NCBI GenBank assembly: GCA_039000985.1
Contig: JAWBMD010000003.1
Coordinates: forward strand, 1-64,000
Origin: Candidatus Aenigmatarchaeota archaeon
Lineage (GTDB): Archaea > Aenigmatarchaeota > Aenigmatarchaeia > CG10238-14 > SpSt-28
Direction: 5' to 3'
DNA: 64,000 bases
The notes under the pieces: model-generated
Told to the model about the DNA's origin: nothing
The model's database searches: none
The model's input: the letters and a program-made list of their open reading frames with translations, nothing else
Made by a program: the position numbers and the translations under genes
Shown here: piece by piece, positions 32,116-58,345 of the stretch
Numbering within the stretch: the stretch's first letter is position 1
How the letters are laid out: every line of letters starts with the position of its first letter

Positions 32116-32190
32116 TAGCGAGGCCTGGATTTGAACCAGGGACCTCCGGGTTATGAGCCCGGCGACCACTCCAGGCTGGTCCACCTCGCT
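32116..32190 (-). tRNA. initiator tRNA-Met(CAU)
   Basis: A1-U72 pair and GGG/CCC anticodon stem; no intron. Confidence 0.95.
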
Positions 32191-35611: not shown

Positions 35612-36327
35612 TTAACTTTAATTAATAAATCTAAATTTTTGAGTGTAGCTTCGTAATCATCAGGGACACCTATATCTGTCCAGAAATCGTTGTAAATATA
35701 AGCTGATAATTCTCCTTCTTCACATAAAATTGGAAAAACTTCTTTTTCTAAAGAAACTTTAGAATTAGGTCTCATATATTCAAAAATTTCATCATTGAAA
35801 ACATATAATCCTGCATTTATATAACCGCTCATTTCTTTTTGTGGCTTTTCTAGAAATCTTGTTATTATATTATCAATATTAAAATCAATTATGCCAAATC
35901 TTTTCGAGTTTTCTATATATTTAACAACTATTGTTCCTATAGTTCCTTTTGATTTATGGAAATTAAGTAAATCAAGCAAATTTAAAGAATAAGAAAAAAT
36001 AACATCACCATTCATAGCAAAAAAAGTTTTACCCAGTTTATCTCTTGCATTTAATATTGCTCCAGCTGTATCTAAAGCTGTTTTTTCTATTGAATACTCT
36101 ATATTAACACCAAAATTACCCCCATCACCAAAATACTTAACTATTGCATCACCCAAATAACCAATAGCTAGAACAATATCATCAAAACCTTTATTTTTAA
36201 AAAACTCTATTGTATGTTGTAAAATTGGTTTTCTACCTAGTGGCAATAATGGCTTTGGGATTATATAGGTTAGAGGTCTCATTCTTGTACCTTCCCCACC
36301 GCATAGAATTAAAACCTTTACTTTCAT
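35608..36327 (-). CDS. NDP-sugar pyrophosphorylase / nucleotidyltransferase
   Basis: GGEGTRMRPLT..PKPLLP, FLEKP, WTDIG. Confidence 0.9.
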   Translation of the reverse strand: MKVKVLILCGGEGTRMRPLTYIIPKPLLPLGRKPILQHTIEFFKNKGFDDIVLAIGYLGDAIVKYFGDGGNFGVNIEYSIEKTALDTAGAILNARDKLGKTFFAMNGDVIFSYSLNLLDLLNFHKSKGTIGTIVVKYIENSKRFGIIDFNIDNIITRFLEKPQKEMSGYINAGLYVFNDEIFEYMRPNSKVSLEKEVFPILCEEGELSAYIYNDFWTDIGVPDDYEATLKNLDLLIKVK

Positions 36328-36371
36328 AAATTTATTAGATGAATGAAAAAATATAAATTATTTTAGGAGTT

Positions 36372-36469
36372 GCCGGTGTAGTTGAGCGGTTAAAACGCCA
36401 CGCTCATATTGAATGAGCTTCGATAAATGAGATACGTGGAGGTCGAGGGTTCGAATCCCTCCACCGGCA
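36372..36469 (+). tRNA. elongator tRNA-Met(CAU) with 25-nt intron 36409-36433
   Basis: CCACG-CTCATA^A-CGTGG; BHB central helix CUCA/UGAG; Ile2 identity not fully excluded. Confidence 0.88.
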
Positions 36470-36471
36470 AA

Positions 36472-36572
36472 GCCCCAGTAGCTCAGTTTGGATAGAGCGG
36501 CGCCCTTCTAATTTAGAAGGTTTGAAAAAAGATGAAAGGCGTAGGTCGCGGGTTCAAATCCCGCCTGGGGCA
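36472..36572 (+). tRNA. tRNA-Arg(UCU) with 26-nt intron 36511-36536
   Basis: GCGCC-CTTCTA^A-GGCGT; A20 in the D loop. Confidence 0.9.
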
Positions 36573-36625
36573 ATAATTTACTAAAAAAAGAAAATTGAAG
36601 TTCTAGAGGTTATGATTATTAAGGT

Positions 36626-36958
36626 TTAGGACGGTTCAATTCCTCGTAACGAACAAGCATCCTGAAAACTACTCTCACTGCAACTAATTTTAAAATTACC
36701 ACTGTCTGGATCTTTATTTGCGCTAATTCCAAATCCATTAAGAATATTTTCCGAACAGTGAAGTCCAGAAATTGTTACTTCTTTATTCCAACCACTTAGC
36801 TTACACTGACCACATGCAGTTGTTACAGCTGCATTACACATCTCTAAATTAGGTCCTGCCTTAACAAATACAGAATATAGAAGATAGCCTACTATGGCAA
36901 GCACTATTATTCCTAATATTAATAAAATTATTTTTTGAACTGCTACACCTTTGGACAT
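36626..36958 (-). CDS. archaeal type IV pilin-like protein
   Basis: MSKG|VAVQKIILLILGIIVLAIV class III signal; Cys-rich head. Confidence 0.7.
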   Translation of the reverse strand: MSKGVAVQKIILLILGIIVLAIVGYLLYSVFVKAGPNLEMCNAAVTTACGQCKLSGWNKEVTISGLHCSENILNGFGISANKDPDSGNFKISCSESSFQDACSLRGIEPS

Positions 36959-36995
36959 AAATTAATATAAAAAACTATTATTTAAATATCAAAAA

Positions 36996-39647
36996 ATGAA
37001 AAAAATAACCTATATAGAAAAAGAGTATGAAAAAGAAGAAATATTAAAAAAATTAGAAAAACCAGTAGCTATTTGGTTCGAAAGCAATTTCAAAGGATTT
37101 ACACCACCTCAAAAAAAGTCAATAATACCGATATTAAACAATAAAAATGTTTTAATAACTTCACCAACTGGTTCTGGAAAAACATTAGCTTGCTTTCTAG
37201 CAATAATAAATAAATTAATAAGGCTTTCACATGAAAACAAGCTAGAGGATTTAGTTTATTGCATATATATAAGCCCATTAAGAGCTTTGGATAGGGATAT
37301 TTATTGGAATTTAATAGACCCGCTTGAAAAAATAGAGGAAATTGCAAAAAAAATTAACTATAATCTAAATAAAAAAATAAGAGTAGCTTTGAGAACTGGA
37401 GATATAAAACCACATGAAAAACAAAAACAATTAAAGGAACCACCCCATATTTTAATAACAACTCCAGAAAGCATTGCAATAATTTTGAATACTATAAAAT
37501 TTAAAGAAAAGTTGAGGGGCGTTAATTATGTTATTGTTGACGAAATTCATGAACTAGCTAATTCAAAAAGAGGAGTTCATTTATCTTTAAGCTTGGAAAG
37601 ATTGGAAAATTTTTGTGGAAGGAAAATTGTTAGAATTGGAGCAGGAGCAACATTAGAACCTTTAGAGCTTGCTGCAAAATTTTTAGTTGGAACAAAAAGA
37701 AGTTGTTATATTGTTGATGCAAGATTTCTCAAAAAAACAAATATAAATGTAACAATTCCATCAACAAAGCTATTATATGAAAACGCTGAAAGCATAAATA
37801 AAAAAATGTATGAGATTTTGGATAGGCTTATTGCAAATAGCAAAACAACGTTAGTTTTCACAAACACAAGAAGTGGTGCAGAAAGAGTTCATTGGCATTT
37901 GAAGCAAATGTTTCCATCAAGATATTTAGATGAATATACTGGGGTGCATCATTCAAGCATAAGTAGAGATATTAGATTTGAAGTAGAGGAAAAATTAAAA
38001 AAAGGTGAACTTAAATGTGTTATTACCTCAACCTCCTTAGAGCTTGGGATAGATATAGGTTATATAGATCTTGTGGTTCAAATTGGTTCTCCAAAAAGTG
38101 TTTCTAGATTAATACAAAGAATTGGAAGAGCAGGTCATGCTTTGTATGAAATTTCTAATGGAACAATTATTTGTTTGGATAGGGATGATTTAGTTGAATG
38201 CTTAGTAATGGTTAAAAAAAGCTATGAATATTGGCTTGATAAATTTCACATACCAAGAAATTGTTTAGATATTCTTTCTCAGCATATAGTCGGAATGGCA
38301 ATTGAGAAAAAATGGAAAATAAAAGAAGCTTTTAATTTAGTAAAAAATGCTTATCCATTTTCAACATTAAAATATAAGGATTTCATTTCTGTTTTAAGAT
38401 ATTTAGCTGGCTATTATCATACTTTAACAGATTACAATATTTATGGAAAAATTTGGTTAGATGAAAATGAAGGAACTTTTGGAAGAAGAGGAAAATACAC
38501 AAGAGTTATTTATGTGCTAAACATAGGCACTATTCCAGATGAAGTAAAAATAAAAGTAAGAACAGTAGATGGAAAATTTGTTGGTTTTATTGAAGAAGGA
38601 TTCTTAGAAAGACTTATGCCAAAAGATATTTTTGTTCTTGGTGGTAAAACTTATGAGTTCGTTAAGTCAAAAAAGAATGTTGCATATGTTTTACCAGCAA
38701 AAGAAAAAAAGCCAACAATACCAAGCTGGTTTAGCGAGCAATTACCACTTAATTTCGATTTAGCTATTCAAATAGGAAAATTTAGAGAAAAAGTTTTTGA
38801 AATGATTGATAAGAAATTTTCTAAAGATAAAATAATTGAATTTTTGGAAAATGAGTATTTTGCAAGCAAGGATGTTGCAAATGAAATTTGTGATTACTTC
38901 ATTATTCAATACAACTTTTTGAAATTTTTAAATGTTAATGAATTTCATTCAGATAAAAACGTTATTGTTGAAAATATTATAAATAAAGAAGAGGAAACAC
39001 AAAACATAGTTTTTCATACTTTATATGGAAGAAGAGTTAATGATGCTTTAAGTAGGGCTTATGCTTATGCATTGTCCAAAAAAATTGGTAAAAGTGTTAA
39101 GGTTTCTATAAATGATAATGGATTTATTTTATCATTTGATTTAGAAAAAGAAAGAAGGGGAATTTTTGGAAAAGAATATAAAATTATTGATAGTAAAGAA
39201 GTTGCTTATCTTGTAAATGAAAATAATTTGGAAGAGCTTTTGGTAAAAAGCTTAATAAATACAGAACTAATAAAAAGAAAATTCAGGCATTGTGCAACAA
39301 GAAGCTTTATGATATTAAAAAACTATAAAGGGCATGAAATTAGTGTTGAAAAGCAACAAATAAATGCAGAAAGATTAATAAGAGCGATAAAAGATATAAA
39401 AGATTTTCCAACATTAAAAGAAACTTATAGAGAAATTTTAGAAGATTTCATGGATATTGAAAAGGCAAAGGAAGTTCTTAGATTTTGTAAATTCATTTTT
39501 GCTTCGCTAGCTGATATTCCATCACCATTTGCACACAATTTATTTGTTTTATCTGAAAGTGATGTTGTTTTAATGGAAGATAGAAGAAAACTTTTATTAG
39601 ATTTGCATAAAAAGATTTTAGAAAGAATAGAAGGAATTAAAACTTAA
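36996..39647 (+). CDS. lhr: Lhr-like SF2 helicase
   Basis: SPTGSGKT, DEIH, SLELGIDIG, QRIGRAGH, PSWFSE. Confidence 0.93.
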   Translation: MKKITYIEKEYEKEEILKKLEKPVAIWFESNFKGFTPPQKKSIIPILNNKNVLITSPTGSGKTLACFLAIINKLIRLSHENKLEDLVYCIYISPLRALDRDIYWNLIDPLEKIEEIAKKINYNLNKKIRVALRTGDIKPHEKQKQLKEPPHILITTPESIAIILNTIKFKEKLRGVNYVIVDEIHELANSKRGVHLSLSLERLENFCGRKIVRIGAGATLEPLELAAKFLVGTKRSCYIVDARFLKKTNINVTIPSTKLLYENAESINKKMYEILDRLIANSKTTLVFTNTRSGAERVHWHLKQMFPSRYLDEYTGVHHSSISRDIRFEVEEKLKKGELKCVITSTSLELGIDIGYIDLVVQIGSPKSVSRLIQRIGRAGHALYEISNGTIICLDRDDLVECLVMVKKSYEYWLDKFHIPRNCLDILSQHIVGMAIEKKWKIKEAFNLVKNAYPFSTLKYKDFISVLRYLAGYYHTLTDYNIYGKIWLDENEGTFGRRGKYTRVIYVLNIGTIPDEVKIKVRTVDGKFVGFIEEGFLERLMPKDIFVLGGKTYEFVKSKKNVAYVLPAKEKKPTIPSWFSEQLPLNFDLAIQIGKFREKVFEMIDKKFSKDKIIEFLENEYFASKDVANEICDYFIIQYNFLKFLNVNEFHSDKNVIVENIINKEEETQNIVFHTLYGRRVNDALSRAYAYALSKKIGKSVKVSINDNGFILSFDLEKERRGIFGKEYKIIDSKEVAYLVNENNLEELLVKSLINTELIKRKFRHCATRSFMILKNYKGHEISVEKQQINAERLIRAIKDIKDFPTLKETYREILEDFMDIEKAKEVLRFCKFIFASLADIPSPFAHNLFVLSESDVVLMEDRRKLLLDLHKKILERIEGIKT

Positions 39648-39664
39648 TTTTCATAAAATAAATT

Positions 39665-40162
39665 ATGGCAGAATGTTTATTTTGTAAAATAGTGAATAAT
39701 GAGGTTAAATCATTTAAATTTTATGAAGATGAAAATTGCGTAGCAATTTTAGATATAATGCCAAGAAGCAGGGGAATGACATTAGTTATACCAAAGCAGC
39801 ATTTAAATGATATAAATGAAAATGAAGAATTATCAAAAAAACTTTTTGAATCTTCTTTGAAAGTAATTTCAATTATAAAAAAAAGTTTAAACCCAATTGA
39901 AATAGTTGTTTCAACTTATCCATCCCAAATAAAACATTTTCATTTAAGAATATATCCATTTTATGAAAACGAAATTCCATTAATTGAGAATCAACCAAAA
40001 AAAGTTGAAGAAAGCGAGTTAGAAGAAGTTTTAAGTTTGTTAAAAAGCAACGTAATTCAAGAAGAAGAAAAGAAAGAGGAGGAGCCAAAGAAAGTTGAAG
40101 AAGTGAAAGAAAGAAGCGAAGAAGAAGTTTATTGGATAAAAAGAAGTATTTCTATTGATTAA
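39665..40162 (+). CDS. HIT family protein
   Basis: CLFCKI, TLVIPKQH, HFHLR (third His replaced). Confidence 0.85.
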   Translation: MAECLFCKIVNNEVKSFKFYEDENCVAILDIMPRSRGMTLVIPKQHLNDINENEELSKKLFESSLKVISIIKKSLNPIEIVVSTYPSQIKHFHLRIYPFYENEIPLIENQPKKVEESELEEVLSLLKSNVIQEEEKKEEEPKKVEEVKERSEEEVYWIKRSISID

Positions 40163-41301
40163 AAAAGTTTTAATGGAAAACCAAATTTACTTGTTAAGTA
40201 TAAATTATATAAAAGAATGAAAAAAAGTAATAAAGAAATGTAGTTTGAAATTCTTTTAGCTTTTTTACTACCAAAATATTTTTTCAATATTTCTTCAAAG
40301 ATTAATCCACCATCCAACGGCTTTATTGGTAATGAATTTGCTATTGAAATACCAAGCGTTGCAGTTGCTAAAAATATTAAATATTTACTTTCCCAACCTA
40401 ATGGAAATGTAAAACCAAAAAAATTATATTCAAATTTTTGAGTTATATTTATTACTCCTAAAAATCCTCTATCTTTTAAATCTTTGTGCTCAGCAAGCTT
40501 AACAATAAATTTTCCTTTTGTTGTTTCTATTTCAAGTGTTTGATTTGGTTTTGTTTTATTTAAAAATTTTATTAGAGAAATTAAATCTTTCACTTCTGTA
40601 TTATTAATTTTTAATATGCTTCCAGCTAATTTTGATTCATAAGCTGGAGAATTTTCTATGACATCATAATCTATTCCAGCAGCAACTATAAATCTACTCA
40701 AAATAAACAATATTAAAAGAATTATTAAAAAAGTGAGAAAATTTGAAAATGAACCAGCAGAAAGTATAAATAATTTTTCTTTTGTTTCTATTCTTTTGAA
40801 TTTTTTATTATCTGGATCTACAAAAGCACCTATTGGTAGCAAAAAAAGAAAAATTAAACCATAGGATTTTACTTTCACTTTAGAATACAAAGAGTAAATA
40901 GCATGAGAAAATTCATGTGGAATTAATAATATTGGTAATATTGTTAGCCATGCAAATATTGGGACTGAAATAACCGGACCTGGAATTTGATAACCACCAG
41001 CAGTTGGAAGAACTATTGCAAAACAAGCTTGTGAATGAATAGCACAATTAACTATATAATAAGTTCCAAAAATACTTAAAGCAAAAGTTAAACATAAAGA
41101 AGCAAAACCTAAAGCACTTAAAATTTTTCTATTTTTATTAACAAACTCTTTGACTTTTTTGCCAAATCCTTTATACCTTAAAATAACTATTCCGTACTTA
41201 AACTCAACTCTATTTTTTCTTTTTTCTAAAAGAATAAATAAAAAAACTAAGGAAAAAAAAGCTATTAAGCTAATAATTTCTATCTCAATCCAAGTAATCA
41301 T
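40159..41301 (-). CDS. site-2 protease (M50) with PDZ-like region
   Basis: HEFSH, GAFVDPD, NSLPIKPLDGG. Confidence 0.9.
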   Translation of the reverse strand: MITWIEIEIISLIAFFSLVFLFILLEKRKNRVEFKYGIVILRYKGFGKKVKEFVNKNRKILSALGFASLCLTFALSIFGTYYIVNCAIHSQACFAIVLPTAGGYQIPGPVISVPIFAWLTILPILLIPHEFSHAIYSLYSKVKVKSYGLIFLFLLPIGAFVDPDNKKFKRIETKEKLFILSAGSFSNFLTFLIILLILFILSRFIVAAGIDYDVIENSPAYESKLAGSILKINNTEVKDLISLIKFLNKTKPNQTLEIETTKGKFIVKLAEHKDLKDRGFLGVINITQKFEYNFFGFTFPLGWESKYLIFLATATLGISIANSLPIKPLDGGLIFEEILKKYFGSKKAKRISNYISLLLFFILLYNLYLTSKFGFPLKLF

Positions 41302-42388
41302 TATTTTTTATTTTTTCTGGCAAATATTTTTCGCTTATGAAGGTTATTCCTTTAGAAGCTAATGCTTCTAATTCCGCTTTTGCACCAAATTTTTTCATTA
41401 AGTCAAACTGCTTTTGCCATTTTTTGTTTTCTTTAAACCATTCATAATTCCTAACTTGCTCCAATCTTTTTTCATCAACATCTTTAAATTTAATCAAATG
41501 CTTTTTTAATCCATAATTTTCTATATCTTCGCCAGTTAAACCTAAAAATTTTGCTGAAGGGACAGCCAATCTATCACTAATATGAGCAAGAGCAATTGAG
41601 CCAAATTTTATAACAGAATAAATATAAATTCCCCACGGATCAAAATCTGTTAAAACATAAATTGGTAAATCATGCTCATAATGAAGTCTTTGTAACAATC
41701 TTCTTATTCCTCTAGTAGCTTGTCCTTGAGATGCAACTATTATACAATTAAGCTTTTCCCAAACTTTATCTTCATGTAATCTTTCCCATACAGCTGATTT
41801 TTCAACATAAATAACAAACTTTGCTTTTACTTTTACAAACTCTATATCCTCAACATTACTAGGAACACTCCAGCCACCAGAACCCAATTTAGACCAATCT
41901 ATTAAATCACCCCTATCTCTTATAACAACTTCTCCAGCAACAGCTCCAAGCTTGTTAGCATTTATATGCAATTGCTCTCTTAAAGCACCTGTGATGAGCT
42001 CTAAATCTTCTATAGCTTTATTAGACTCCTCTTGCTCATCTACAGTATTTATTCTCGTTCCTTCAATCGTTCTTTTCAAAACATAAAAAGCTTCTCTTAA
42101 ACTAATATGTTTATTACTTTCTATTAAATTTTTTGAAAGAGAAGTTACACCAATTGTTTGAACAAATTTTCTTATTTGAGCTAAATGAAGGAAATATCTT
42201 TTAGAAATTGCACTCCCCAATATTAACTTTCTTTGTTTTGGATCAAATTTTATATTTCTTAAAGCTCTTATTGGAACTTCTAAATAGGGATTTTGACCTT
42301 TATCCAAATCGCTCCAAACTTTATTACCTATTGAAAACAAGCTTTTTTTAACCTCTTCCTTTGTTTTTGGTTTAATGTATATCTCCAT
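41285..42388 (-). CDS. top6A: DNA topoisomerase VI subunit A
   Basis: SLREAFY, VEK, TDFDPWG, KAELEAL. Confidence 0.96.
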   Translation of the reverse strand: MEIYIKPKTKEEVKKSLFSIGNKVWSDLDKGQNPYLEVPIRALRNIKFDPKQRKLILGSAISKRYFLHLAQIRKFVQTIGVTSLSKNLIESNKHISLREAFYVLKRTIEGTRINTVDEQEESNKAIEDLELITGALREQLHINANKLGAVAGEVVIRDRGDLIDWSKLGSGGWSVPSNVEDIEFVKVKAKFVIYVEKSAVWERLHEDKVWEKLNCIIVASQGQATRGIRRLLQRLHYEHDLPIYVLTDFDPWGIYIYSVIKFGSIALAHISDRLAVPSAKFLGLTGEDIENYGLKKHLIKFKDVDEKRLEQVRNYEWFKENKKWQKQFDLMKKFGAKAELEALASKGITFISEKYLPEKIKNNDYLD

Positions 42389-43995
42389 TATACTTTTATT
42401 TCTTCAACAATTTCTTTTGTTTCTTCTTTCTTTTCCTCAACTTCTTTATATTTTCCTTCCTCAATTAATTTAATAACTTTTTCGAAAATTATTTTTTCAT
42501 CTTTGTTAACTATATTGGATAAATATTCGGAAAAAACTTTTGAATAAGCTTCAAAGATACCTCTTCTTTGTCTAGCTTCTTGTAATCTTATTTTTTTGCT
42601 TAAATATAAGCCAAGCTTTCTACCAGCTTCTTGCAATGCAAGCTTTATTTCTTTTAATATTTCTGGATATTCAGCAATTGCTTGTTTACCTTCGCTTTTA
42701 TAAGGTATCCAAACAGAGATTAAATCAACAAATATAACCATTGGAGCTACGGGAAATCCTTTTTGCTGGCTTATTTTGTAATTTCTCCAATCTATTTCCT
42801 CAACAGCCCTTGTAATAACACAGTCATGTTGATTATAAAGTAAAGGAGTATGATTAGCAAATCTTATTAAAATAGAAGGATTTTCGTTACCAATAGTATT
42901 TATTAAATTACCACCATAAGCTATTGCTGCTTGTACCTGAAAAGGATTTCCTCTATAAACTGATGGTTTTCTAGTTACTGCCACAACAAACTCTGCATTA
43001 AATTCTTTTTTCAAGCTTTGTTCAATAAATTCATTTTTTAATGGAGAAAGACAATCTGTTGGTGGTGCTTTTAGTTTTAAAGATTGCAATGCTCTATATA
43101 ATTTTTCTATTTCTTTTTCACTTAATTCCTCACATTTTTTATCAATAGAAATTCTAGCTAATTTACAAGCTTTAATGGCATTATTCTTACCAACTCTTGA
43201 AAATTCTTTTGTTAAAAAAGATAAAACAGTTTTTCCAGTTGATAATTGAAGCATTCTTTTAAATCTTCCCAACTCTACTCCATAAGGATGGGGCTTTATT
43301 TCCTTAGGTAATGGTGGTAATTCATTTGTTAATCTTTCAAGCTTTATTACATTGTTGTTCGGATCTTCATAAATTATTTCAATAAATGGATTTGCAAGCC
43401 AAATATATCTTAAATAAGTTGGTATTGATTGACCTTTTTCTATATATCTCCCTTCAACAGTTAAATCCATTATTAATCCATGTTTATTACCATCAATGTT
43501 TTTAAAATTTGTTGAAATAACTTTTGGTTCATTTTTCAAAACATCTATAGTCATTTCTATATCATATCTTTTTCCTTTATAAAATGTTGATATAATAGCT
43601 GGCTTACCTGTTGTTAATTGAGCATATAAAATAGCTCCCTTAGCTCCTATGCCCTGGGTACCAACACTTTGTCTTAATCTATAAAATTTGCTACCAACTA
43701 AAAATTTTCCAAATGCAAATGGTATTTTATCTGGCGGTAGACCAGGACCATTATCTTCAACCCTAATCCTAAAGACATTTTCCGAATCCGATTTCACAGA
43801 AACTTTTATAGTTGGTAATATGCCAGCTTCCAATGCAGCATCTATTGAATTATCAACCATTTCCTTTACAACAGTTAGCAAGCTTTTAGTTGGATTTTCA
43901 TAACCAAGCAAATGTCTATTTTTTTCAAAAAATTCAGATATACTTATTTCTCTTATTTTTTCACCCATTAAATCAACAATACCATCTTGAGCCAT
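42388..43995 (-). CDS. top6B: DNA topoisomerase VI subunit B
   Basis: EMVDNSIDA, DNGPG, PHPYGV, RFANHTPLLY. Confidence 0.96.
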   Translation of the reverse strand: MAQDGIVDLMGEKIREISISEFFEKNRHLLGYENPTKSLLTVVKEMVDNSIDAALEAGILPTIKVSVKSDSENVFRIRVEDNGPGLPPDKIPFAFGKFLVGSKFYRLRQSVGTQGIGAKGAILYAQLTTGKPAIISTFYKGKRYDIEMTIDVLKNEPKVISTNFKNIDGNKHGLIMDLTVEGRYIEKGQSIPTYLRYIWLANPFIEIIYEDPNNNVIKLERLTNELPPLPKEIKPHPYGVELGRFKRMLQLSTGKTVLSFLTKEFSRVGKNNAIKACKLARISIDKKCEELSEKEIEKLYRALQSLKLKAPPTDCLSPLKNEFIEQSLKKEFNAEFVVAVTRKPSVYRGNPFQVQAAIAYGGNLINTIGNENPSILIRFANHTPLLYNQHDCVITRAVEEIDWRNYKISQQKGFPVAPMVIFVDLISVWIPYKSEGKQAIAEYPEILKEIKLALQEAGRKLGLYLSKKIRLQEARQRRGIFEAYSKVFSEYLSNIVNKDEKIIFEKVIKLIEEGKYKEVEEKKEETKEIVEEIKV

Positions 43996-44060
43996 AATAT
44001 ATTAAATTAGCTGCAAAATATATTTTACGAATATTTATTTTTGTTGATAGAATTAAATTT

Positions 44061-44732
44061 ATGAGTATAGCTAACTGGATAGGTATTTTAATAATGATAA
44101 TAGTTGTACTATATTTCTTAAAAACTGAAACAGGAAGCTATTATTTAGATTTGGTAAAAACAGCTTTAGGTTCTTTAGTGCCAAAGATTTTTAAATCAGA
44201 AGCAGCTGGCAATACAACAGTAGAAGTTTTTATGGAATCAAAAAATTCATTACAAAGCTTTAACATAGAAGTTAAAGAAACTGAACTTAGAATAACTACA
44301 GAAGCTGAAAATATGAAAAACTTAAATATAAAAATAGCTGAGATAAAAAAATTAAAAAACGGAACAATAGAGATAAATATGAGTATTAAAAAAGGTTTTC
44401 TTTTGTGGAAGGATGATGGAAGCTTGAAGTTTATTGGAAGTATTTATAAAATGAGCTTAGATGATTTATCATTTCCTTCAGATATTGGTTTCGAAGTTAA
44501 TATAGAAGCATATCCGAAAAAGTTTAGTATAGATGAAATTAAAGCAAAGGAATTAGTTTTTCTCAACTCGTTTGGTAATCTTAGTACAGAAAAAGGGATA
44601 TTAAAATTAAAAGGTGATGAACTAAGATTGAAATCATTTAGTGGTTCATTATCGTTAAACAATTTCATTAAAATAAAAGGAGTTGTTTCTAAAATGCTAA
44701 TAAATAATAAGCCTGCAGATATATTATCATGA
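44061..44732 (+). CDS. membrane-anchored hypothetical protein
   Basis: N-terminal TM, beta-rich remainder; ATGA overlap with sepF. Confidence 0.6.
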   Translation: MSIANWIGILIMIIVVLYFLKTETGSYYLDLVKTALGSLVPKIFKSEAAGNTTVEVFMESKNSLQSFNIEVKETELRITTEAENMKNLNIKIAEIKKLKNGTIEINMSIKKGFLLWKDDGSLKFIGSIYKMSLDDLSFPSDIGFEVNIEAYPKKFSIDEIKAKELVFLNSFGNLSTEKGILKLKGDELRLKSFSGSLSLNNFIKIKGVVSKMLINNKPADILS

Positions 44733-45073
44733 AGAAAATAATTGAAACAATGAAAAATCTGTTCGAAAAAATATTTTATGTTAGAGAAGAGAAGCTAGAA
44801 CTAACAGAAATAAAAGATACTTTTCAAAAATATCCATTGAAAGTAGAAAAGCTTTTGAACTATCAAGATGTAGAAAGAATAGCAAGAATTGTTAGAGATG
44901 GTAATTTAACTTTAGTAAGTGTAAAAGATTTGCAAAAGAAAGATTTGAGTGAGTTTCAGAATTCTTTAATAAAGCTGAAAAAAATAGCAAACCAATTCAA
45001 ATGGGATATGGTTGGAATAGAGGATGGTTATTTAATAATATCTCCTGGATTTGCGGTAATAGAAAGAAAATAA
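44729..45073 (+). CDS. sepF: cell division protein SepF
   Basis: DVERIARIVRDGNLTLV...LKK......DMVGI...YLIISP...IER. Confidence 0.8.
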   Translation: MKKIIETMKNLFEKIFYVREEKLELTEIKDTFQKYPLKVEKLLNYQDVERIARIVRDGNLTLVSVKDLQKKDLSEFQNSLIKLKKIANQFKWDMVGIEDGYLIISPGFAVIERK

Positions 45074-45076
45074 ACT

Positions 45077-45742
45077 TTATTTTTTATAAATTTTTATTTC
45101 ATCAAAAAAATCATTTTGAATACAATCTATTAATCCTTTCTTATCTAAATGTAAAACTGGAACAAAATAACTTACTATATTTTCAACATTCCATTCATCA
45201 ACTATTTCATCAAACAAAATAAATCCTTTATCTTTGCACAAATTAACTATTTTTTCATAAACATCATTCATTCTTTTTTCAAAATCCTTAGCTTGACCAA
45301 TTCTTATTTCTATTTGTCTTCTTCTTTCCCAAATTCTTCTTTCCTTTTTCTCTTTTAGTTCAATAACTTTTTTTAAAGCAATTATTAAATCATTCAAAGT
45401 TATAGGACCTTTTGGAATTCTTCTAATAGGGCTTTCAACATAAACTTCAATTTTTTCTACTGTTTCAACTTTTTCCTCTTTTGTTACTTCCTCCTCTTCC
45501 TTCTTTCTATCCAAATATTCCACTTTTATTCTAAGCAAAATAGAAGCAACAAAAATAACTTTAGCCGGTATTCTGAAATCCAACTCAACTACTTTATTCA
45601 AAAAATTTATAAAACCATTACAAAGTTTAACTAAATCTATATTCCATGGGTCTAAATTTTCTAAGCTAACAACATAATAAATAATTTCTTCCCAGCTTTC
45701 TTTTTTTATTATTTCACTTATTATGTTTTCTTCCAATATCAT
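45077..45742 (-). CDS. scpA: segregation/condensation kleisin ScpA
   Basis: LDPWNIDL, ASILLRIK, FVPVLHL...Q..FF.EI; follows smc. Confidence 0.92.
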   Translation of the reverse strand: MILEENIISEIIKKESWEEIIYYVVSLENLDPWNIDLVKLCNGFINFLNKVVELDFRIPAKVIFVASILLRIKVEYLDRKKEEEEVTKEEKVETVEKIEVYVESPIRRIPKGPITLNDLIIALKKVIELKEKKERRIWERRRQIEIRIGQAKDFEKRMNDVYEKIVNLCKDKGFILFDEIVDEWNVENIVSYFVPVLHLDKKGLIDCIQNDFFDEIKIYKK

Positions 45743-48700
45743 TTTGGTAATTCCAAGCTTACTATTTTTGATTCCCCATCTTCCATGCTTACTCCATATA
45801 TATAATCAGCAAACTTAAGAGCTTCTTCGTTATGCGAAATAACTATGAATTGAGAATCTTTTGAAAATTCTTTAATGACTTTCCAAATTAGTGTTGTGTT
45901 TTCTTTATCTAATGCTGCATCTATTTCATCAAACAAATAAAATAATGATGGTTTATATCTTTGAATAGCTAAAATAAAAGCTAAAGCTGTTACAGTTTTT
46001 TCTCCACCAGATAAAGAATCTATGTTAACAAGCTTTTTACCTGGAAAACTTGCTCTTATTAGTAAGCCGCTATCAATATTATCCTTTTCCTCAAGCTCAA
46101 GAGAAGCCTCCCCACCATTAATCCTTTTAAATATTTCATTAAAATTGTTACTTATTGCATTTAATGTTGAAATAAAAACTTCTTTTCTCCTTTTCTCTAT
46201 TTCATCAATCATTTTTAAAACAGCATCCCTTTCTTCACTAATTTTTTTAAATTTCAAAAAAATTTCTTCATATTCAGCTTTAAATTTCTCTAGCTCTTCT
46301 TCTGCTCTAAAATTAATGGTACCCAAGCTTTCTATCTTATTTGAAACTACTTTTATTTCATTTTCTATTTCGTTCAAACTTTTATTTACAAAAACAACAT
46401 CTTTATATTGTTGCAACTCCATTCTAACATTTTCAAAATCACTTTCTACTTTACCTTTATGAAAATTCAACTTGTTTATTTCATTTTGTAATTTGATTTT
46501 TTCTTCAATTAATTTCCTTCTTTTTTCTTTTAATGTTTCTAAAAGGATTGCAGAATTTTTTCTTAAGCTTTCTAAATTTTCCAAATCTTTACTTTCTTCT
46601 TTTGCTATTTCAAATTTAGATAATTCTTTTAAAATTTTTTCTCTTTCTTCTTTTAGTTTATTTAATTCCTCAATAGCTATTTTTCTTTTTTCAATAAGCT
46701 CATCTATATTAAACTCTTTTTTCCACGATTTTTTAACTAAATAACCACCAGTTAAAGCACCACTTCTCTCTATTAAATCACCATCTAATGTAACCATTCT
46801 AACTTCTCCAATTCCTATTTTTTCAACCGTATCTAAATCCTTAACAATTATTGTATTTCCAAATACAAATTCTATAGCATTTCTAAATTTTTCATCAAAT
46901 TTTAACAAATTGCTAGCAATACCGATATAACCATCTATGTTTTTAAATTTACTATCATCAATAACTTTACCCTTTATTTTATCTAATGGTAAAAATGTAG
47001 CTCTACCAATTTTATTATCTCTTAAATATTCTATACACAATCTAGCAATTTTAAAATCTTCAACAACTAAATCGTAATAATGATTTGCGGCAGCTATCTC
47101 TATTGCATATTCTAATTCTCTAGGAAATTTAATTAAAGAAGATATAGTACCAAAAACTCCTCTCAAATTTAATTTTAATACTGCTTTTACAGGAGAAGGA
47201 ATTTCTTCTATTTGCTTAGCTTCAGCCCTCGCTATGCTTTCATTAATGTTTTCTATTTCTCTTTCTTTAATTGTTATTTTGCTTTCTATTATACTTAAAG
47301 AATTTTGTAGTTTAATATATTCTTTTTCTTTTTCTAAGTTTTTGTAAGCGTTATAAATTTTTTCACCAATATCTTTAAGCACATTTTCATTTTTCTCTAT
47401 TTCTTGTTCTATTTTTTCACTTTCTTCTTCAATTTTCTTTTTCCTTTCTTCTAAAATATTCAAATTTTTTTCAATACTTTCTAAATTTTTTAATAAATAT
47501 TCTTCTTTTTTCTTCCAATACGATGCTTTTAAAGTAATTAGAGTTTTTTGGAGAGATTTGTAAGTATCAGCTATTTCTTTCTCTCTTTTCAATTTTTCTA
47601 AAATTTGATTTTTTTGATTAACAACAATTTCAACCTCTTTTAATTTTTGATTAACAAATTCCAAATCTTTTAGAGCTTTCTCCTTTTTTTCATTATACTC
47701 GCTTATTCCACAAATTTCATCTATTATTGCTTTTCTCTCTAAAGGATTCATTTCTATTATGTTTGCAACATCTCCTTGCAAAACTATATTATGTCCATCT
47801 GGATAAATTCTTACTGAAGATAAAACTTGTAAGATTTTTTCTCTTGTTGTAGTAATACCATTAAGTTTATAAACAGTAAATCCCTTTCTATTTACTTTTC
47901 TTGTAATTGTTATTTCTTGAGAATCTTCACCAAATATTTTATTTGAGTTATCGAAAGCTATAGAAACAGAAGCAATTTCTGCAGGTTTTTTATTTGGTGA
48001 GCCATGAAAAATTAATTCAGATAATCTATCTGCACGCAAACTTTTTGCACTAGTTCTTCCTAGAACAAAGCAAATAGCATCTATTATATTGCTATTATGA
48101 ACAATAATGTTATTAGCAATAAAATTGTGAAAATCTTTTATGCACAAATCATAAACCCATTTCTTTTTGTTTTCTTGTTTAATTTCAACGATTTCATCCC
48201 AAAATATATCAGATTTAATAAGCAAGTTAGCTAAATTTTCATCAATATCTTCTAAATTTAAATTTATATCATTACAATCTCTCAAAACAGCTATTTTTTC
48301 TCCAATCCTTAAATATTTTGATGGAATAGAAACTATTGAATTATTTCTTAAAACAAAAAATGGATGAGAATAAGTTACGGTCAATTCTTTACCACTAGCT
48401 GTTATTATTTTCAATAATTTGCAATCTATTCTTTTTATAAATGCATCTATTTTTCTTTCCTCAACTTTCAAAGTAAATGGATTTATAGAAAGAACTTTAT
48501 AATTGTTTGGATTATCTATACAGAAAACCCCATCAGATAGTTTTTTTATTTCTGAGCAGTTTTTTAAAGATTCATCAACAATTTCTTCAATAGTTTTATA
48601 TTCCCAATTAGATAAAGCTACTAATGTATTACCATCAACACATTTACCACTTCCATTTGGTCCTGTTATAATAGTTATACCTTTTTTAAATGGAATAGAT

Positions 48701-48750
48701 ATTCTTTTATTAAAGCTTTTAAATCCTTGCAATGTTAACTTTGTTATCAT
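45739..48750 (-). CDS. smc: chromosome segregation protein SMC, intein-containing, short coiled coils
   Basis: GFKSF, GPNGSGK|SN split by intein, hinge GRATFLPL, LSGGEK, DEIDAALD. Confidence 0.95.
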   Translation of the reverse strand: MITKLTLQGFKSFNKRISIPFKKGITIITGPNGSGKCVDGNTLVALSNWEYKTIEEIVDESLKNCSEIKKLSDGVFCIDNPNNYKVLSINPFTLKVEERKIDAFIKRIDCKLLKIITASGKELTVTYSHPFFVLRNNSIVSIPSKYLRIGEKIAVLRDCNDINLNLEDIDENLANLLIKSDIFWDEIVEIKQENKKKWVYDLCIKDFHNFIANNIIVHNSNIIDAICFVLGRTSAKSLRADRLSELIFHGSPNKKPAEIASVSIAFDNSNKIFGEDSQEITITRKVNRKGFTVYKLNGITTTREKILQVLSSVRIYPDGHNIVLQGDVANIIEMNPLERKAIIDEICGISEYNEKKEKALKDLEFVNQKLKEVEIVVNQKNQILEKLKREKEIADTYKSLQKTLITLKASYWKKKEEYLLKNLESIEKNLNILEERKKKIEEESEKIEQEIEKNENVLKDIGEKIYNAYKNLEKEKEYIKLQNSLSIIESKITIKEREIENINESIARAEAKQIEEIPSPVKAVLKLNLRGVFGTISSLIKFPRELEYAIEIAAANHYYDLVVEDFKIARLCIEYLRDNKIGRATFLPLDKIKGKVIDDSKFKNIDGYIGIASNLLKFDEKFRNAIEFVFGNTIIVKDLDTVEKIGIGEVRMVTLDGDLIERSGALTGGYLVKKSWKKEFNIDELIEKRKIAIEELNKLKEEREKILKELSKFEIAKEESKDLENLESLRKNSAILLETLKEKRRKLIEEKIKLQNEINKLNFHKGKVESDFENVRMELQQYKDVVFVNKSLNEIENEIKVVSNKIESLGTINFRAEEELEKFKAEYEEIFLKFKKISEERDAVLKMIDEIEKRRKEVFISTLNAISNNFNEIFKRINGGEASLELEEKDNIDSGLLIRASFPGKKLVNIDSLSGGEKTVTALAFILAIQRYKPSLFYLFDEIDAALDKENTTLIWKVIKEFSKDSQFIVISHNEEALKFADYIYGVSMEDGESKIVSLELPK
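48094..48642 (-). mobile_element. mini-intein (183 aa) in the SMC Walker A motif
   Basis: starts CVDGNT, block B TYSHPF, WDEI, VYDL, ends IVHN followed by Ser; no LAGLIDADG domain. Confidence 0.93.
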
Positions 48751-49247
48751 GAAATTTTTAAAGCACTTTTTATTTCATTAATTATGCTTTCTCCCAATTT
48801 TTTACAATCTTCAAAAAAATTTTTTCTAACATTGGAATAAAAATTGTTGTGATAAAATTTAAGTAATGTTTTATAAAAAATAGTTTTTTCTATTGGTGTA
48901 TCTAGGTAATACTCTGTAACAAGTTTAACTATTATGGAAATAGATAAATTACCTGGCTTATCAGAAGCTTTTGGTTGATCTCCATTAAATATTAATTCTA
49001 CAAAAGTAAATGTTCTTTCATCATGTTTTTTTAATATATATAACCTAATAAAAAATCCAAATTTCTCGTCGCTAGTTGCATCCCATCGAAAATCTCTTTC
49101 AAATATTTCATCATCAGAAATACCCAATTTAACTTTCAATAATTCCAAAACTTTTTTATATGCTTCAAATGGATCAGGTCCTTTATATTCTATTTTTAAT
49201 TTTGCTGTTGGTTCCATACAATCATCCTCAAACCTTATTACAGCCAT
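48747..49247 (-). CDS. hypothetical protein (paralog of 49248-49730)
   Basis: shared DxC, YxGPxP, I.ERxxRWD motifs. Confidence 0.7.
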   Translation of the reverse strand: MAVIRFEDDCMEPTAKLKIEYKGPDPFEAYKKVLELLKVKLGISDDEIFERDFRWDATSDEKFGFFIRLYILKKHDERTFTFVELIFNGDQPKASDKPGNLSISIIVKLVTEYYLDTPIEKTIFYKTLLKFYHNNFYSNVRKNFFEDCKKLGESIINEIKSALKIS

Positions 49248-49730
49248 TTAAACTCTTATATTTAAAAAGTTTTTTATGTTATTCTCCAATAAGCTAATAA
49301 TTTGTTTGCATTCATCCTTATATTTATTAATCTCTGCCTCCAAATGCCTTCTATAGACAAATCCAAATAACCCAGCTATAAAAGAAGTTTCCATAGTCGT
49401 ATTTTTTATTCTAGGGTCTATTAAGATAGATACTTTACCTTCTCTTTCAAATTCTTTGCTAGGTTTTGTTGAACCATCTATTTTTATTTCAACAAAAATG
49501 TATGTTGTTTCAGTTAAATATTTTGTAACAAAAAATGTAGAAGAAAATTTTTCTTCCATTGTGCTTCTATCCCATCTCAATTCTCTTTCCTCAATATTTT
49601 TATCTTCAACACCAAATACTCTTTTTAACATGTTTTTCATTTCAAAGTAAATATTTTCTGGTTTTGGTCCAACGTAATTTATAACTAATGGTAATGTTAA
49701 ACATGGTTCATCTATTATAATCTTAGCCAT
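49248..49730 (-). CDS. hypothetical protein (paralog of 48747-49247)
   Basis: EPC, YVGPKP, IEERELRWD. Confidence 0.7.
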   Translation of the reverse strand: MAKIIIDEPCLTLPLVINYVGPKPENIYFEMKNMLKRVFGVEDKNIEERELRWDRSTMEEKFSSTFFVTKYLTETTYIFVEIKIDGSTKPSKEFEREGKVSILIDPRIKNTTMETSFIAGLFGFVYRRHLEAEINKYKDECKQIISLLENNIKNFLNIRV

Positions 49731-49871
49731 AATTATTTTTTCTAAACTTGCAAATTTATTTTACTTCTTTTCACAAAACTTCCAATTAAGAAAAAGTTAG
49801 GAGAAATAATTTTACAAAAATTTTTGATGCCTAGATTGAGAATTTTATGGTGATCCAGCCGCACGTTCCCG

Positions 49872-49958
49872 TTGCCTGATATGTGGAAATCTCGTTTCAC
49901 CATAAATTCTTCATCGCTCAGAATCAACCCAAGCTTTCATTATTTTTTCCACATATCT
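49872..49958 (-). ncRNA. 16S intron after position 1513 (87 nt) containing a two-guide box C/D RNA
   Basis: BHB ends, 12-bp terminal stem, C/D'/C'/D boxes with two 12-nt guides antisense to 16S. Confidence 0.85.
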
Positions 49959-50260
49959 TACGGCTACCTTGTGACGACTTACCCCCCCTCGCAGAGGTTC
50001 TACTCGACTATTTCTTCAATAGCCTTGTAGAACCTCTACTCGGTTGGGTTGACGGGCAGTGTGAGCAAAGGACAGGGACGTATTCAGCGAACGTTAGTGA
50101 CGTCCGCTTACTAGGGATTCCAGCTTCACGAGGGCGAGTTACAACCCTCGATCTGAACTGAGCACGCTTTTTAGGGATTTGCTCTCCCTTTCGGGTTCGC
50201 ATCCCATTGTAGCGTGCATTGTGTCGCGCGTGTAGCCCAGCGCAATAGGGGCATACGGAC

Positions 50261-51080
50261 TTCGACCAGCTAGAGAGCATTTATTAAACTTTTCATGTCT
50301 TCAAAAATTTTATCAAAAGCTTGAAGTTCTTCGCGATTAAAACTATCTAATTTTCTCTTAGTTTCTATTAGTCCTCAAACTTTAATCATTGGAAAATTGA
50401 ATTTAATTTTGAATCCTTGAAAAGCCAATTTTTGAATTTGTTCTTTTATTTCTCTTTTTGAGAAGGAATTTATTTCTTTGCATTCTATCACTATGTTACT
50501 GTCAGGTAAGAAAAAGTCAACTATAAGATTTTCTTTGAGTGGAAAGTTAACATGGAACCCAATATTCTTCTCCGATAGCGCTTTCTCCAGTAATCTCTCT
50601 TGTGGTGCACGTCTCTTTTTGAGACTTTCTATAGCTCCTTTTCTTCTTGCTTTTTGTGCTGCATAACTTTTTCCATGTACTTTAAACCATTCGATAGCTT
50701 CCATCTGAGATTTCTAAATCTATTTATTACTTCAGATAAAATTACTACCCGCATTCTACTCTGAATTTTATTAACCAATTTTCTGCAGTTTTAAATTGCA
50801 TTGTTTTTATTTTACCTAACTCGTACTTGTTGATATTTTTGGAAGGACTTCCTACGAATTTCTCAAACTCATTTTGTGATAATCCTAATGCTAACCTTAA
50901 TATCAATAGTTTTTGAGGGTTTAACATTAGAATTTCTGGAGAAATCTCCGTAAAGTTTTTGTTTCTATCTTTACTTCTTTAAAGAGTTTTCTTATTTTAT
51001 CCTCTGGAATTATAGTTTTTGGTATATATATTATACTGATGTACGACCATTTAAATCTTACTGACCAACTCTCTAGCTGT
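50261..51080 (-). mobile_element. 16S intron after position 1197 (820 nt)
   Basis: BHB: CGGU/GUCG central helix, CAGCUAGAGAG/CUCUCUAGCUG stem; AT-rich coding interior. Confidence 0.9.
50270..51050 (-). pseudogene. fragmented intron-encoded HTH(XRE) plus PD-(D/E)xK endonuclease-like ORF
   Basis: LRLALGLSQNEF..KYELG HTH; VDFFLPDSNIVIECK; frame breaks and an in-frame TGA at 50375. Confidence 0.7.
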
Positions 51081-51179
51081 CTACCGTCGCCCACACCTTC
51101 CTCCCACTTATCGCGGGCAGTCTCCCATGAGTGCCTCCTTTCTTTCGAAAGGAGTAGCAACATGGGATGTGGGTCTCGC

Positions 51180-51211
51180 TTCAACCCTGACCAGAAATAC
51201 TCTGGTCAAGT
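51180..51211 (-). other. 16S hairpin intron after position 1105 (32 nt)
   Basis: BHB UAAC/GUUG, stem CUUGACCAGAG/UUCUGGUCAGG. Confidence 0.85.
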
Positions 51212-51214
51212 TCG

Positions 51215-51246
51215 TTAGTCTCATCAAGCTATTTTTGCTCGATGAT
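51215..51246 (-). other. 16S hairpin intron after position 1102 (32 nt)
   Basis: BHB GGUU/GACU, stem UCAUCGAGC/GCUUGAUGA. Confidence 0.85.
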
Positions 51247-51544
51247 TTAACCGACTTGACGGCACGCCTCACGGTACGAGCTGACGGTGGCCATGCACCA
51301 CCGCTCGGCTTGTCTGGTAAGCCCTTCAGACTGACCATCATCCTGCCGTCTGCGCTGGTAAGATTTCCGGTGTCGAATCCAATTGAACCGCACGACCCAC
51401 CCCTTGTGTGTCCTCCCGCCAATTCCCTTAAGTTTCATCCTTTCGGACGTACTCCCCAGGCGGCCCACTTAACACCTTCGCTCCGGCACAGGGTACTCCC
51501 AAGGAGTACCCCACACCAAGTGGGCATCGTTTACGCCCAGGACT

Positions 51545-51624
51545 TTCCCGCGCAGATGGGGAGCAGTTCATTTCTCAAAGGATTAGATATTCTTCATATA
51601 ATCAGAAGATACTCCCAACCACGC
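51545..51624 (-). ncRNA. 16S intron after position 801 (80 nt) with a C/D guide module
   Basis: BHB CCCG/CGGG; interior CUGA..AUGAAGA-AUAUCUAAUCCU-UUGA..AUGAAC. Confidence 0.85.
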
Positions 51625-51703
51625 ACCGGGGTATCTAATCCCGATCGCTCCCCTGGGTTTCGTCCCTCACCGTCCGGACTGTTCCAGGCAGCCGCCTTCG
51701 CCA

Positions 51704-51900
51704 CTCACCCAACAGAGGTCGGCTTAAAAAAGACTGTTAGGAGTTTCTCTATAAAAAATAAAAACGTTGTTTTCTTTTTTCCAAGTAAATTATTTGGCAA
51801 CTCCTCTAAAAATTGTATTTTTTTTATTGTTAGAATTTCAATAAGTCTTTTAGTCAAAGCTCGAAGCGACTATAATTATTGACCGCCAACACTCTGCTGA
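51704..51900 (-). other. 16S intron after position 722 (197 nt), AT-rich interior probably an ORF remnant
   Basis: BHB CACC/GGUG, stem CAGCAGAG/CUCUGUUG. Confidence 0.85.
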
Positions 51901-52216
51901 CTGGTGGTCCCCATAGGATTAACGGATTTAACCCCTACCCTATGGGTACCGCTGCCCTCTCCCAGCCGCTAGACTAGCAGTATCTCCCCCAAGCTCACCA
52001 GTTTACTGGTGAATTTCAAGGGAGACTTACTAGTCCGGCTACGAACGCTTTAGGCCCAATATTCGTGCTCACCACTTGGGGCGCGGGTCTTACCGTGGCA
52101 GCTGGCACCCGTCTTGCCCACCCCTTATTCGCCCAACCGTTAACATTGGGCAAAAGCTCCTTACCAAAAGGTAAGAAGCACTCCGGCTACCCTCATCGGG
52201 CGTTAACCCATTGTGA

Positions 52217-52251
<35 letters not shown>

Positions 52252-52449
52252 CTCATGTCTCAGAGTCCATCTGGGGGCTCCCACTTCCATGGCCCCTACC
52301 CGTTATAGCCTTGTGGAGCTATTACCTCCACAACAAGCTGATAGGGGATAGTCTCATCCTCGAGCGGCTTCGAACGCCCCTTTGATATGGAGACATTCCA
52401 GTACTCCATATCTATGGGGTATTAGCCCCAGTTTCCCGGGATTATCCCC

Positions 52450-52482
52450 TTCGAGCCAAAAGTGATAGAAATCACTTATGGT
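52450..52482 (-). other. 16S hairpin intron near position 144 (33 nt)
   Basis: BHB CGAG/CUCG, stem CCAUAAGUGAU/AUCACUUUUGG. Confidence 0.85.
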
Positions 52483-52779
52483 CTCTCGAGGGTAGATTAA
52501 CTACCCATTACGCAGCAGTACGCCGAGGGCTTGCCCCTCACGGCTTGCATGGCTTAGTCGTAGCCGGATAGCAGTGAGCTCTGGTGGGATCAACCAGCAT
52601 CGAGAATGGCGGGAAATTCTCAATCTAGGTTTCATCAATTATAATCAACCCGTGTTCTTCTCGAACACGGAATCTAAGTGACCAAGGCGAAATTTACTTT
52701 TCATAAACATCTCTCAACGATTCTTCCAAGTTAGACACTCCTTGGTCAATAATATATATGGAAATTGGAATTTAAATAT

Positions 52780-56813: not shown

Positions 56814-56894
56814 AAATAAATTATAAACCTATAGAAATAAATTAAGATAGCTCCCAAATTATTAATACTTTAAATAAATAATTTATAAAACTTT

Positions 56895-58187: not shown

Positions 58188-58196
58188 TTTTTAAAA

Positions 58197-58317
58197 GTGC
58201 TAGGGACTTCATGGATTTCCCGAGCAAAGATGCTCAGTACTCTCCATATCTCCGAGGAGCTTAACTTCTGTGTTCGGGATGGGAACAGGTGTTTCCTCCC
58301 CGATTTGGTCCCCAGCA
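58197..58317 (-). rRNA. rrf: 5S rRNA
   Basis: CCCATCCCGAACACAGAAGTTAAGC core; terminal helix GCTGGGGAC/GTCCCTAGC; about 120 nt. Confidence 0.93.
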
Positions 58318-58345
58318 TAATATTATTACATTTAAAATTATTTAT

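Follow-up and report, generated by a model that had tools for sequence, protein, structure and literature searches.

Short tRNA introns of an Aenigmatarchaeota archaeon as candidate one-motif box C/D guides for nucleotide 34 of their own precursors

Two adjacent tRNA genes, tRNA-Met(CAU) and tRNA-Arg(UCU), in the window (the whole 64,000-nt stretch of Candidatus Aenigmatarchaeota archaeon DNA that was analysed, contig JAWBMD010000003.1) carry introns of 25 and 26 nt, each with a guide complementary to the anticodon loop of its own host tRNA, a D'-like box, a short loop and a C'-like box. It is very probable, judging from the sequence data described below, that this module guides 2'-O-methylation of nucleotide 34, and we favour, with less assurance, the view that such introns are natural C'/D' half-guides that methylate nucleotide 34 in cis before splicing.

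The tRNA-Met(CAU) gene (36372–36469, forward strand, as are all coordinates except those of the 16S rRNA gene and those given with a contig name; Rfam tRNA, 64.1 bits) appears to encode an elongator tRNA, since a separate initiator-type CAU gene (32116–32190) and a tRNA-Ile(UAU) gene are present and TiaS had no match in the genome, which is 89.7% complete. Its 25-nt intron (36409–36433) lies at position 37/38 and contains the 6-nt guide AUGAGC (36413–36418), an exact complement of G31–U36 (36402–36407). The D-5 base, G36415, faces C34 (36405), and U36419 is an unpaired spacer. The D'-like box UCGA (36420–36423) is followed by the C'-like box AUGAGAU (36427–36433), which overlaps the bulge-helix-bulge (BHB) strand (36428–36431); the two boxes form tandem G-A pairs plus a C-G and a U-A pair. 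The tRNA-Arg(UCU) gene (36472–36572; Rfam tRNA, 60.4 bits), 2 nt downstream of tRNA-Met, has a 26-nt intron (36511–36536), also at 37/38, with the 7-nt guide UAGAAGG (36514–36520) complementary to C31–A37 (36504–36510). Here, A36517 is the D-5 base and faces U34 (36507), U36521 is the spacer, the D'-like box is UUGA (36522–36525) and the C'-like stretch (36529–36537) overlaps the BHB strand GAUG (36531–36534). This stretch can be read in two registers, as an RUGA core at 36532–36535 or as AAGAUGA at 36529–36535; with AUGA, the kink-stem pairs use A36536 and the exon base A38 (36537).

Both introns share one layout: bases 5–10 complement nt 31–36, base 11 is U, bases 12–15 are NNGA, and a short loop then leads to the C-like box, with the BHB strand within the last six bases. 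Both are archaeal BHB introns by their 37/38 site and a 4-bp helix with nt 32–35 between two 3-nt bulges; the intron strand of that helix is UGAG in Met (4/4 pairs) and GAUG in Arg (3/4 pairs, with one U-U). Both genes and introns, the guides, the one-nucleotide gap, the NNGA boxes and the D+5 placement on nt 34 are as the sequence-only reading had described them. The leading UUGA of the Met intron is not a box: the same-genus homologue has AAA there, and in the window these bases pair with the D box in an outer helix. The probability of such a module in shuffled introns is 0.014 for Met and 0.030 for Arg. Gene boundaries were taken from our own regular expression and Rfam; the default ARAGORN calls at the two genes (Gln and Ser) were rejected as miscalls, and a relaxed ARAGORN run gave mostly noise. 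No C/D sRNA family matched the Met/Arg locus in Rfam searches with an E-value limit of 10. RNA reads of four related runs, mapped over 36000–52800, show no depth on tRNA genes and give no evidence either way.

The host assembly (843 kb in 26 contigs) contains 41 tRNAs found by Rfam plus Leu(UAA), found by the regular expression only; there is no tRNA-Trp in the assembly. Ten tRNAs have introns, and eight of these carry the module (Met, Arg UCU, Leu CAA, Leu UAA, Gln UUG, Glu UUC, Lys UUU and Ser UGA), where the earlier reading had named two. The introns of Tyr(GUA) and Ile(UAU) have no module and serve as internal negatives. Shuffle probabilities in the six further module introns are 0.002–0.053 each. 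The module is present in each of the five U34 tRNAs that read split NNR boxes, a distribution linking it to accurate decoding in a reduced genome; the family-box U34 tRNAs, with the exception of Ser, are intronless. The tRNA-Lys(UUU) gene (11677–11805) has a 38-nt intron at 37/38 (11732–11769) with guide 11743–11749, box D 11751–11754 and box C 11758–11764, and its target would be U34 at 11728. A second intron of this gene (17 nt, near 30/31) repeats a GCUUUU stretch resembling the anticodon loop, and two introns are likewise present in the Lys UUU and Leu UAA genes of several relatives. The tRNA-Ile(UAU) gene (contig C26:24257–24348) has a 20-nt intron.

A panel of introns from relatives was gathered with a pattern blind to the motif (long tRNA only), which matched in 21 of 21 genomes searched. 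It comprises the matches listed (150 of 255 in one search) from 15 relatives, plus the host genome; intronless chance matches (judged by eye), one duplicate Ile gene and two introns of one relative were left out. Ten genes with only non-canonical introns remained unparsed, 10 doubtful parses were dropped and three were fixed by hand. The resulting panel holds 172 canonical introns from 16 genomes in seven families, eight of the genomes being from one family. With the BHB strand excluded and at least five Watson–Crick pairs over nt 34 required, 96 of the 172 introns have nt-34 antisense, and in 93 of these 96 a GA begins exactly seven bases beyond the base that faces nt 34 (offset 7), which is the N+5 geometry (offsets 5, 6, 8 and 9 account for 2, 0, 1 and 3 introns). 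Intron shuffles give a mean of 2.2 such cases (maximum 9 in 500) and non-cognate exon swaps a mean of 6.1 (maximum 15), nulls that, like the permutations below, overstate independence because the genomes are kin. The module is real, far beyond chance, and the guide–anticodon covariation, fixed one-base gap and N+5 placement on nt 34 that the sequence-only reading had expected are borne out in the 16 genomes.

The module is found in Lys UUU (13/13), Leu CAA (12/13), Gln (11/11), Glu (11/11), Met (11/12), Trp (11/12), Leu UAA (10/10), Arg UCU (7/7) and Ser UGA (4/12), and the nt-34 form is absent in the panel from Ile UAU (0/11), Tyr (0/8), Cys (0/8) and Thr UGU (0/9). The Ile UAU intron was obtained from 11 of the 16 genomes. 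Five of the seven families have complete nt-34 modules; one panel genome has no module in three introns and another has only the nt-39 modules described below. The guide varies with the anticodon and with nt 31, with G facing C34 in 60 introns and A facing U34 in 73. The spacer does not form a Watson–Crick pair with nt 30 in 131 of 133 cases, and among 127 distinct modules the guide–target duplex is 6 bp in 49 and at least 9 bp in 29. We regard as negligible the prospect that the module arose by chance or as a by-product of the BHB, as a second complement of the anticodon. Each intron is indeed short, A/U-rich and obliged to hold one complement of nt 32–35; however, the BHB strand was excluded from the test, the 93 cases observed stand against a shuffle maximum of 9, and the Ile UAU, Tyr and short introns without a module argue against a necessary by-product.

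The boxes were examined in a set of 224 introns (the panel and loci picked by motif), which yielded 157 modules when box C was kept out of the definition. In 133 of the 157 the spacer is U, and box D is UUGA in 91, the canonical CUGA in 34, UCGA in nine and some other sequence in 23. An RUGA follows after a 3–12-nt loop in 153 modules; the 3' half of box C departs from the consensus but covaries with box D, with D1:C6 pairs in 150/153 (permutation mean 104, maximum 119) and D2:C5 pairs in 148/153 (permutation mean 134, maximum 144). This kink motif matches the archaeal sRNA D'/C' K-loop as it is described in PMC6009581. There were 78 cases in which both the NNGAUGA and the RUGA registers were possible: both fit in 66 of them, RUGA alone in 11, NNGAUGA alone in none, and neither in one. 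The Arg box is therefore probably AUGA at 36532; the sequence-only reading was right to place a C box there, but AAGAUGA is the less likely register. It had also held that the C box explains the flaw in the Arg BHB helix, and this agrees with the homologues: GAUG is found in four of four Arg introns with box C at the very end, and the other six of the ten Arg introns pair fully. As a general claim, degradation of the BHB helix by box C overlap is weak (36 of 88 introns with the overlap and 21 of 39 without it have a fully paired helix) and it is clear only for Arg.

A second class of modules is directed at nt 39, in Cys GCA, Thr UGU, Tyr GUA and one Lys CUU. Defined only by pairing to nt 38–41 plus the boxes, it includes 19 of 217 distinct introns. 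In all 19 the guide forms Watson–Crick pairs with the last two bases of its own intron, in eight combinations (permutation mean 3.1, maximum 10), whereas only one of the 19 would pair with nt 36–37 of the mature tRNA. Three of these guides extend into exon bases, and 18 of the 19 introns have box C at 6 nt from the splice site. Among the distinct nt-34 modules, 77 of 127 pair through nt 37. In the 46 informative cases, in which intron base 1 is not the same as A38 and the guide has space to extend, 37 guides pair with intron base 1, two with the mature A38 and seven with neither; the Met and Arg introns of the window have no room for such an extension. By these pairings (37 versus two, and 19 of 19), the predicted substrate is the unspliced pre-tRNA, and mature tRNA is excluded. 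As a check on rRNA as the real target, the eight guides of the host genome were compared with its 16S and 5S rRNA (49800–58400): their longest perfect matches are 6–7 nt, which is the chance level. Six 23S rRNA motifs had no match in the assembly.

We infer from these observations that each intron is probably a natural half of a box C/D guide, with an internal D'-loop-C' kink (K-loop) and the guide upstream of it. The guide would fold back on nt 31–36 (or 37) of the unspliced pre-tRNA during transcription, L7Ae would bind the K-loop, and Nop5–fibrillarin would join the complex and add a 2'-O-methyl group to the nucleotide opposite D-5 (C34 for Met, U34 for Arg), most likely in cis. The RNA would then refold to the BHB for splicing by the endonuclease. 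The guide fold excludes the BHB, because both require nt 32–35 and a portion of box C, and a refolding step before splicing would therefore be required. Action in cis is preferred because a duplex of 6–7 bp should be too little in trans, an 8-bp substrate having been left unmodified in trans in an experiment reported in PMC7229835. The loop between nt 36 and its guide partner is 5 nt in Met and Arg and 3–20 nt across homologues, and 5 nt may be tight for the enzyme.

Methylation of nt 34 in trans, guided by the excised intron in linear or circular form or by the intron of another pre-tRNA, is a serious but unlikely alternative. It was favoured in vitro for Haloferax tRNA-Trp, according to PMC2584109; RtcB and the splicing endonuclease are encoded in the genome and archaeal introns circularise (PMC7714728); and once splicing has taken place, box C and the BHB strand would no longer clash. 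The sequence-only reading had taken a circularised intron with a C-to-D spacing of 11–12 nt as the working form, and the Met intron circle does have a spacing of 11 nt, but the spacing in such circles ranges from 8 to 41 nt and is 11–12 nt in only 12 of the 127 distinct modules, a variability that leaves the circle unsupported as the selected form. Further, the 6–7-bp duplexes are too weak in trans by the PMC7229835 data just mentioned, the three nt-39 guides that extend into the exon require exon bases, and the fixed 6-nt tail of the nt-39 class suits a fold-back. Pairing to the intron ends excludes mature tRNA as the target, though another pre-tRNA would still fit action in trans.

The proteins that guided methylation would need are encoded in the genome: fibrillarin, Nop5 and L7Ae, with fibrillarin in 115 of 118 genomes of the order. 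A stand-alone enzyme of the SpoU type was not found in the 89.7%-complete genome. A weak FtsJ match (27 bits, in a 261-aa protein) was rejected as a wobble 2'-O-methyltransferase because the protein looks like an m5C enzyme of the RsmB/NSUN kind. As separate observations, the RtcB gene (contig C1:66304–69051) is a 966-aa open frame whose profile match is split by about 1400 bases, in an intein-like manner, and the catalytic domain of the splicing endonuclease (contig C7:7390–7641) belongs to a 393-aa open frame, whose length would suffice for a multi-unit enzyme.

Folding of the naked RNA at 37 °C, in a model that ignores K-turns and protein, gives the guide fold a probability of 0.56–0.98 in six of the eight module introns of the host, with 0.88 for Arg and 0.08 for Gln. 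In Met, C34 is in the BHB helix with probability 1.0 and the guide fold has 0.00, and the D box is hidden in the outer helix by the first intron bases. The guide hairpin and K-loop thus compete with the BHB, which is one argument for the view that the K-loop binds L7Ae only and, together with the antisense hairpin, controls folding or the timing of splicing, no methyl group being added. The duplexes are also shorter than in known guides, and a lone motif lacked specificity in the experiments of PMC1635284. We nevertheless consider such a switch improbable: it needs neither the exact facing of D-5 to nt 34 or nt 39 with one unpaired spacer, seen in the 93 of 96 and 131 of 133 cases above, nor a choice of tRNAs that are known for 2'-O-methylation at position 34. 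Guided methylation, most likely in cis, remains the reading we prefer.

A Met-specific pattern searched over 185,579 genomes found 15 loci, nine in Aenigmatarchaeota, four in uncultured archaea, one in a woesearchaeote and one in a bacterium; no tRNA was found in the bacterium. A strict pattern with a 5-nt loop matched in 92 of 371 genomes of the phylum, including 18 of 18 of the host's own family, and mostly within its own order (the reversed control gave one match); some single matches outside the order are due to chance. A looser pattern matched in 24 of 400 genomes sampled from the phylum to which the Woesearchaeota record belongs, one further genome being uncounted, and about 22 of the 26 matches listed show, by eye, a guide to their own anticodon, mostly in Trp and Met.

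In relatives, the tRNA genes for Ser, Thr CGU and Arg CCU also have introns of 53–65 nt that contain two copies each of a C-like and a D-like box, so that a reduction series exists, and these two-motif introns with non-self guides are plausibly the ancestral form. The series, and the non-consensus boxes of the window introns, could suggest that the short introns are decaying relics of full-size C/D sRNAs once housed in introns, but compensatory changes in the kink stem and guide across five families show continuing selection, and we give decay very little weight. Ser introns (CGA, GGA and UGA; 53–65 nt) that have the shape of complete two-motif C/D sRNAs, with conserved non-self guides, were found at eight loci. 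The guide of the long Ser GGA intron matches host 16S rRNA over 10 bp in two genomes; of 65 candidate guides from long introns, seven reach 9 bp against the spliced 16S rRNA of the genome described here, and 20 shuffles give 0–5, so that any 16S target of these guides is tentative. One relative has two tRNA-Glu(UUC) genes with the same exons and different module introns (28 and 32 nt), possibly a result of bin contamination.

The 16S rRNA gene of the window (49850–52600, reverse strand) has six inserts of 33, 197, 80, 66, 820 and 87 nt. RNA reads in two runs (X1 and X3) skip the inserts, although these reads may derive from a close relative, and 20 X3 reads join 52629 back to 49823, which corresponds to a circular pre-16S form. 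The 80-nt intron (51545–51624, reverse strand) contains a 10-nt guide, one U, UUGA, 3 nt and AUGA; its N+5 target would be a U of its own upstream exon (51638), and there is one kink-stem mismatch. By this layout, the intron appears to have the same self-guide design within an rRNA intron. The 87-nt intron (49872–49958, reverse strand) resembles a complete C-guide-D'-C'-guide-D sRNA with a long closing stem; the second of its guides (10 nt) is complementary to the 3' end of 16S rRNA, with the target C at 49850, and four X1 reads connect the end of the intron with its start, as expected for a circle. The 820-nt intron (50261–51080, reverse strand) has two open stretches, of 77 and 112 aa and not in the same frame, which look like a helix-turn-helix and a nuclease-like domain. 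The 3' end of the 16S rRNA (49840–49856, reverse strand) is without the usual CCUCC anti-Shine–Dalgarno run.

More broadly, introns of 22–26 nt may be the smallest known working one-motif box C/D guides, which methylate their own precursor in cis and delay splicing until nt 34 or nt 39 is modified, with a design that reaches 16S rRNA introns, an ancestry in long two-motif introns and a role for introns as the main guide carrier of the cell; this whole picture we offer tentatively, as somewhat less probable than not. If it is true, most anticodon introns of a whole lineage gain a defined job, the persistence of short archaeal tRNA introns being an open question. Such introns would also be natural substrates for two disputes: whether one C'/D' motif is enough (PMC7229835 versus PMC1635284) and whether an intron guide acts in cis (PMC2584109).

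In one study (Yang et al., 2020; PMC7229835), halfmers with C'/D' alone directed methylation to specific sites in vitro when combined with archaeal proteins, whereas a one-motif RNP was active but non-specific in another (Hardin and Batey, 2006; PMC1635284). These engineered RNAs share with the introns a single motif and a single guide; unlike them, they are laboratory constructs acting in trans with 9–10-bp duplexes, and their specificity results conflict. The discussion of eukaryotic snoRNAs in PMC7229835 judges natural C'/D'-only RNAs unlikely to assemble in cells. PMC6239191 mentions a crystal structure with a half-mer RNA and its target, and 9 bp is the usual minimum for predicting a duplex according to PMC6009581. 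One-motif self-guides in short tRNA introns were not found described in the literature searched, which leaves out most subscription journals, and the portion of PMC7714728 consulted has nothing on short intron guides.

C/D-guided wobble 2'-O-methylation of Met, Trp, Leu and Gln tRNAs has been documented or predicted: the Pyrococcus targets include Leu CAA, Leu UAA, Met and Trp (PMC7994747) and a Sulfolobus target is Gln UUG (PMC7668247). The tRNAs that carry the module match these known targets (Leu CAA, Leu UAA, Met, Trp and Gln UUG). Free-standing wobble guides (Pyrococcus; Sulfolobus; Pyrobaculum sR26, sR27, sR45 and sR46) thus share with the introns the target position, an overlapping set of tRNAs and the N+5 rule, but they are separate two-motif genes acting in trans. 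The statement in PMC2584109 that the guide for Cm34 of tRNA-Met is always outside the intron is contradicted by the Aenigmatarchaeota lineage described here. The elongator tRNA-Met intron of Nanoarchaeum equitans (66 nt, a stable C/D-like RNA) is another DPANN Met intron with a box D, a variant box C and a proposed guide role; the consulted part of that report names no target and treats the three shorter introns as lacking this feature (Randau, 2012; PMC3491384). Possibly it is a longer representative of the class described here.

Canonical archaeal C/D sRNAs share with the introns a D-type box with GA, an RUGA C box, a guide with one spacer and N+5 targeting, and the presence of L7Ae, Nop5 and fibrillarin in the cell. 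They have, however, two motifs, two spacers of about 12 nt, a length of 50–60 nt, box C at the 5' end and box D at the 3' end, and duplexes of about 9–10 bp; the introns have one motif with D before C, 25–26 nt, no fixed spacing in the circle and duplexes of 6 bp (Met) and 7 bp (Arg), and we do not file them as canonical members because they lack the two motifs and the 9–10-bp duplex. The closest relative is the euryarchaeal tRNA-Trp intron guide (Haloferax volcanii; Pyrococcus sR50), which two reviews treat as the one case in which an intron guides modification of the tRNA that hosts it (PMC7994747, PMC4090602). In common with the introns described here it has a guide directed at its own tRNA, targets at nt 34 and nt 39, and paired intron bases (PMC2584109, PMC7994747, PMC4090602). 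Modification of Haloferax tRNA-Trp precedes splicing, and the choice between cis and trans in vivo is called open in PMC2584109. The tRNA-Trp guide is 65–103 nt long with C/D and C'/D' motifs and two guides, and is described as unique to tRNA-Trp. The introns described here, in contrast, are 22–45 nt long with one D-loop-C motif, one guide of 6–10 nt and one predicted target each, and are found with at least nine anticodons for nt 34 and four for nt 39; even the Trp introns of the relatives carry a single nt-34 module (11 of 12), unlike the two-target sR50 type. Thus, we class the feature as a variant of the intron-encoded guide known from tRNA-Trp, unlike the canonical two-motif sRNA.
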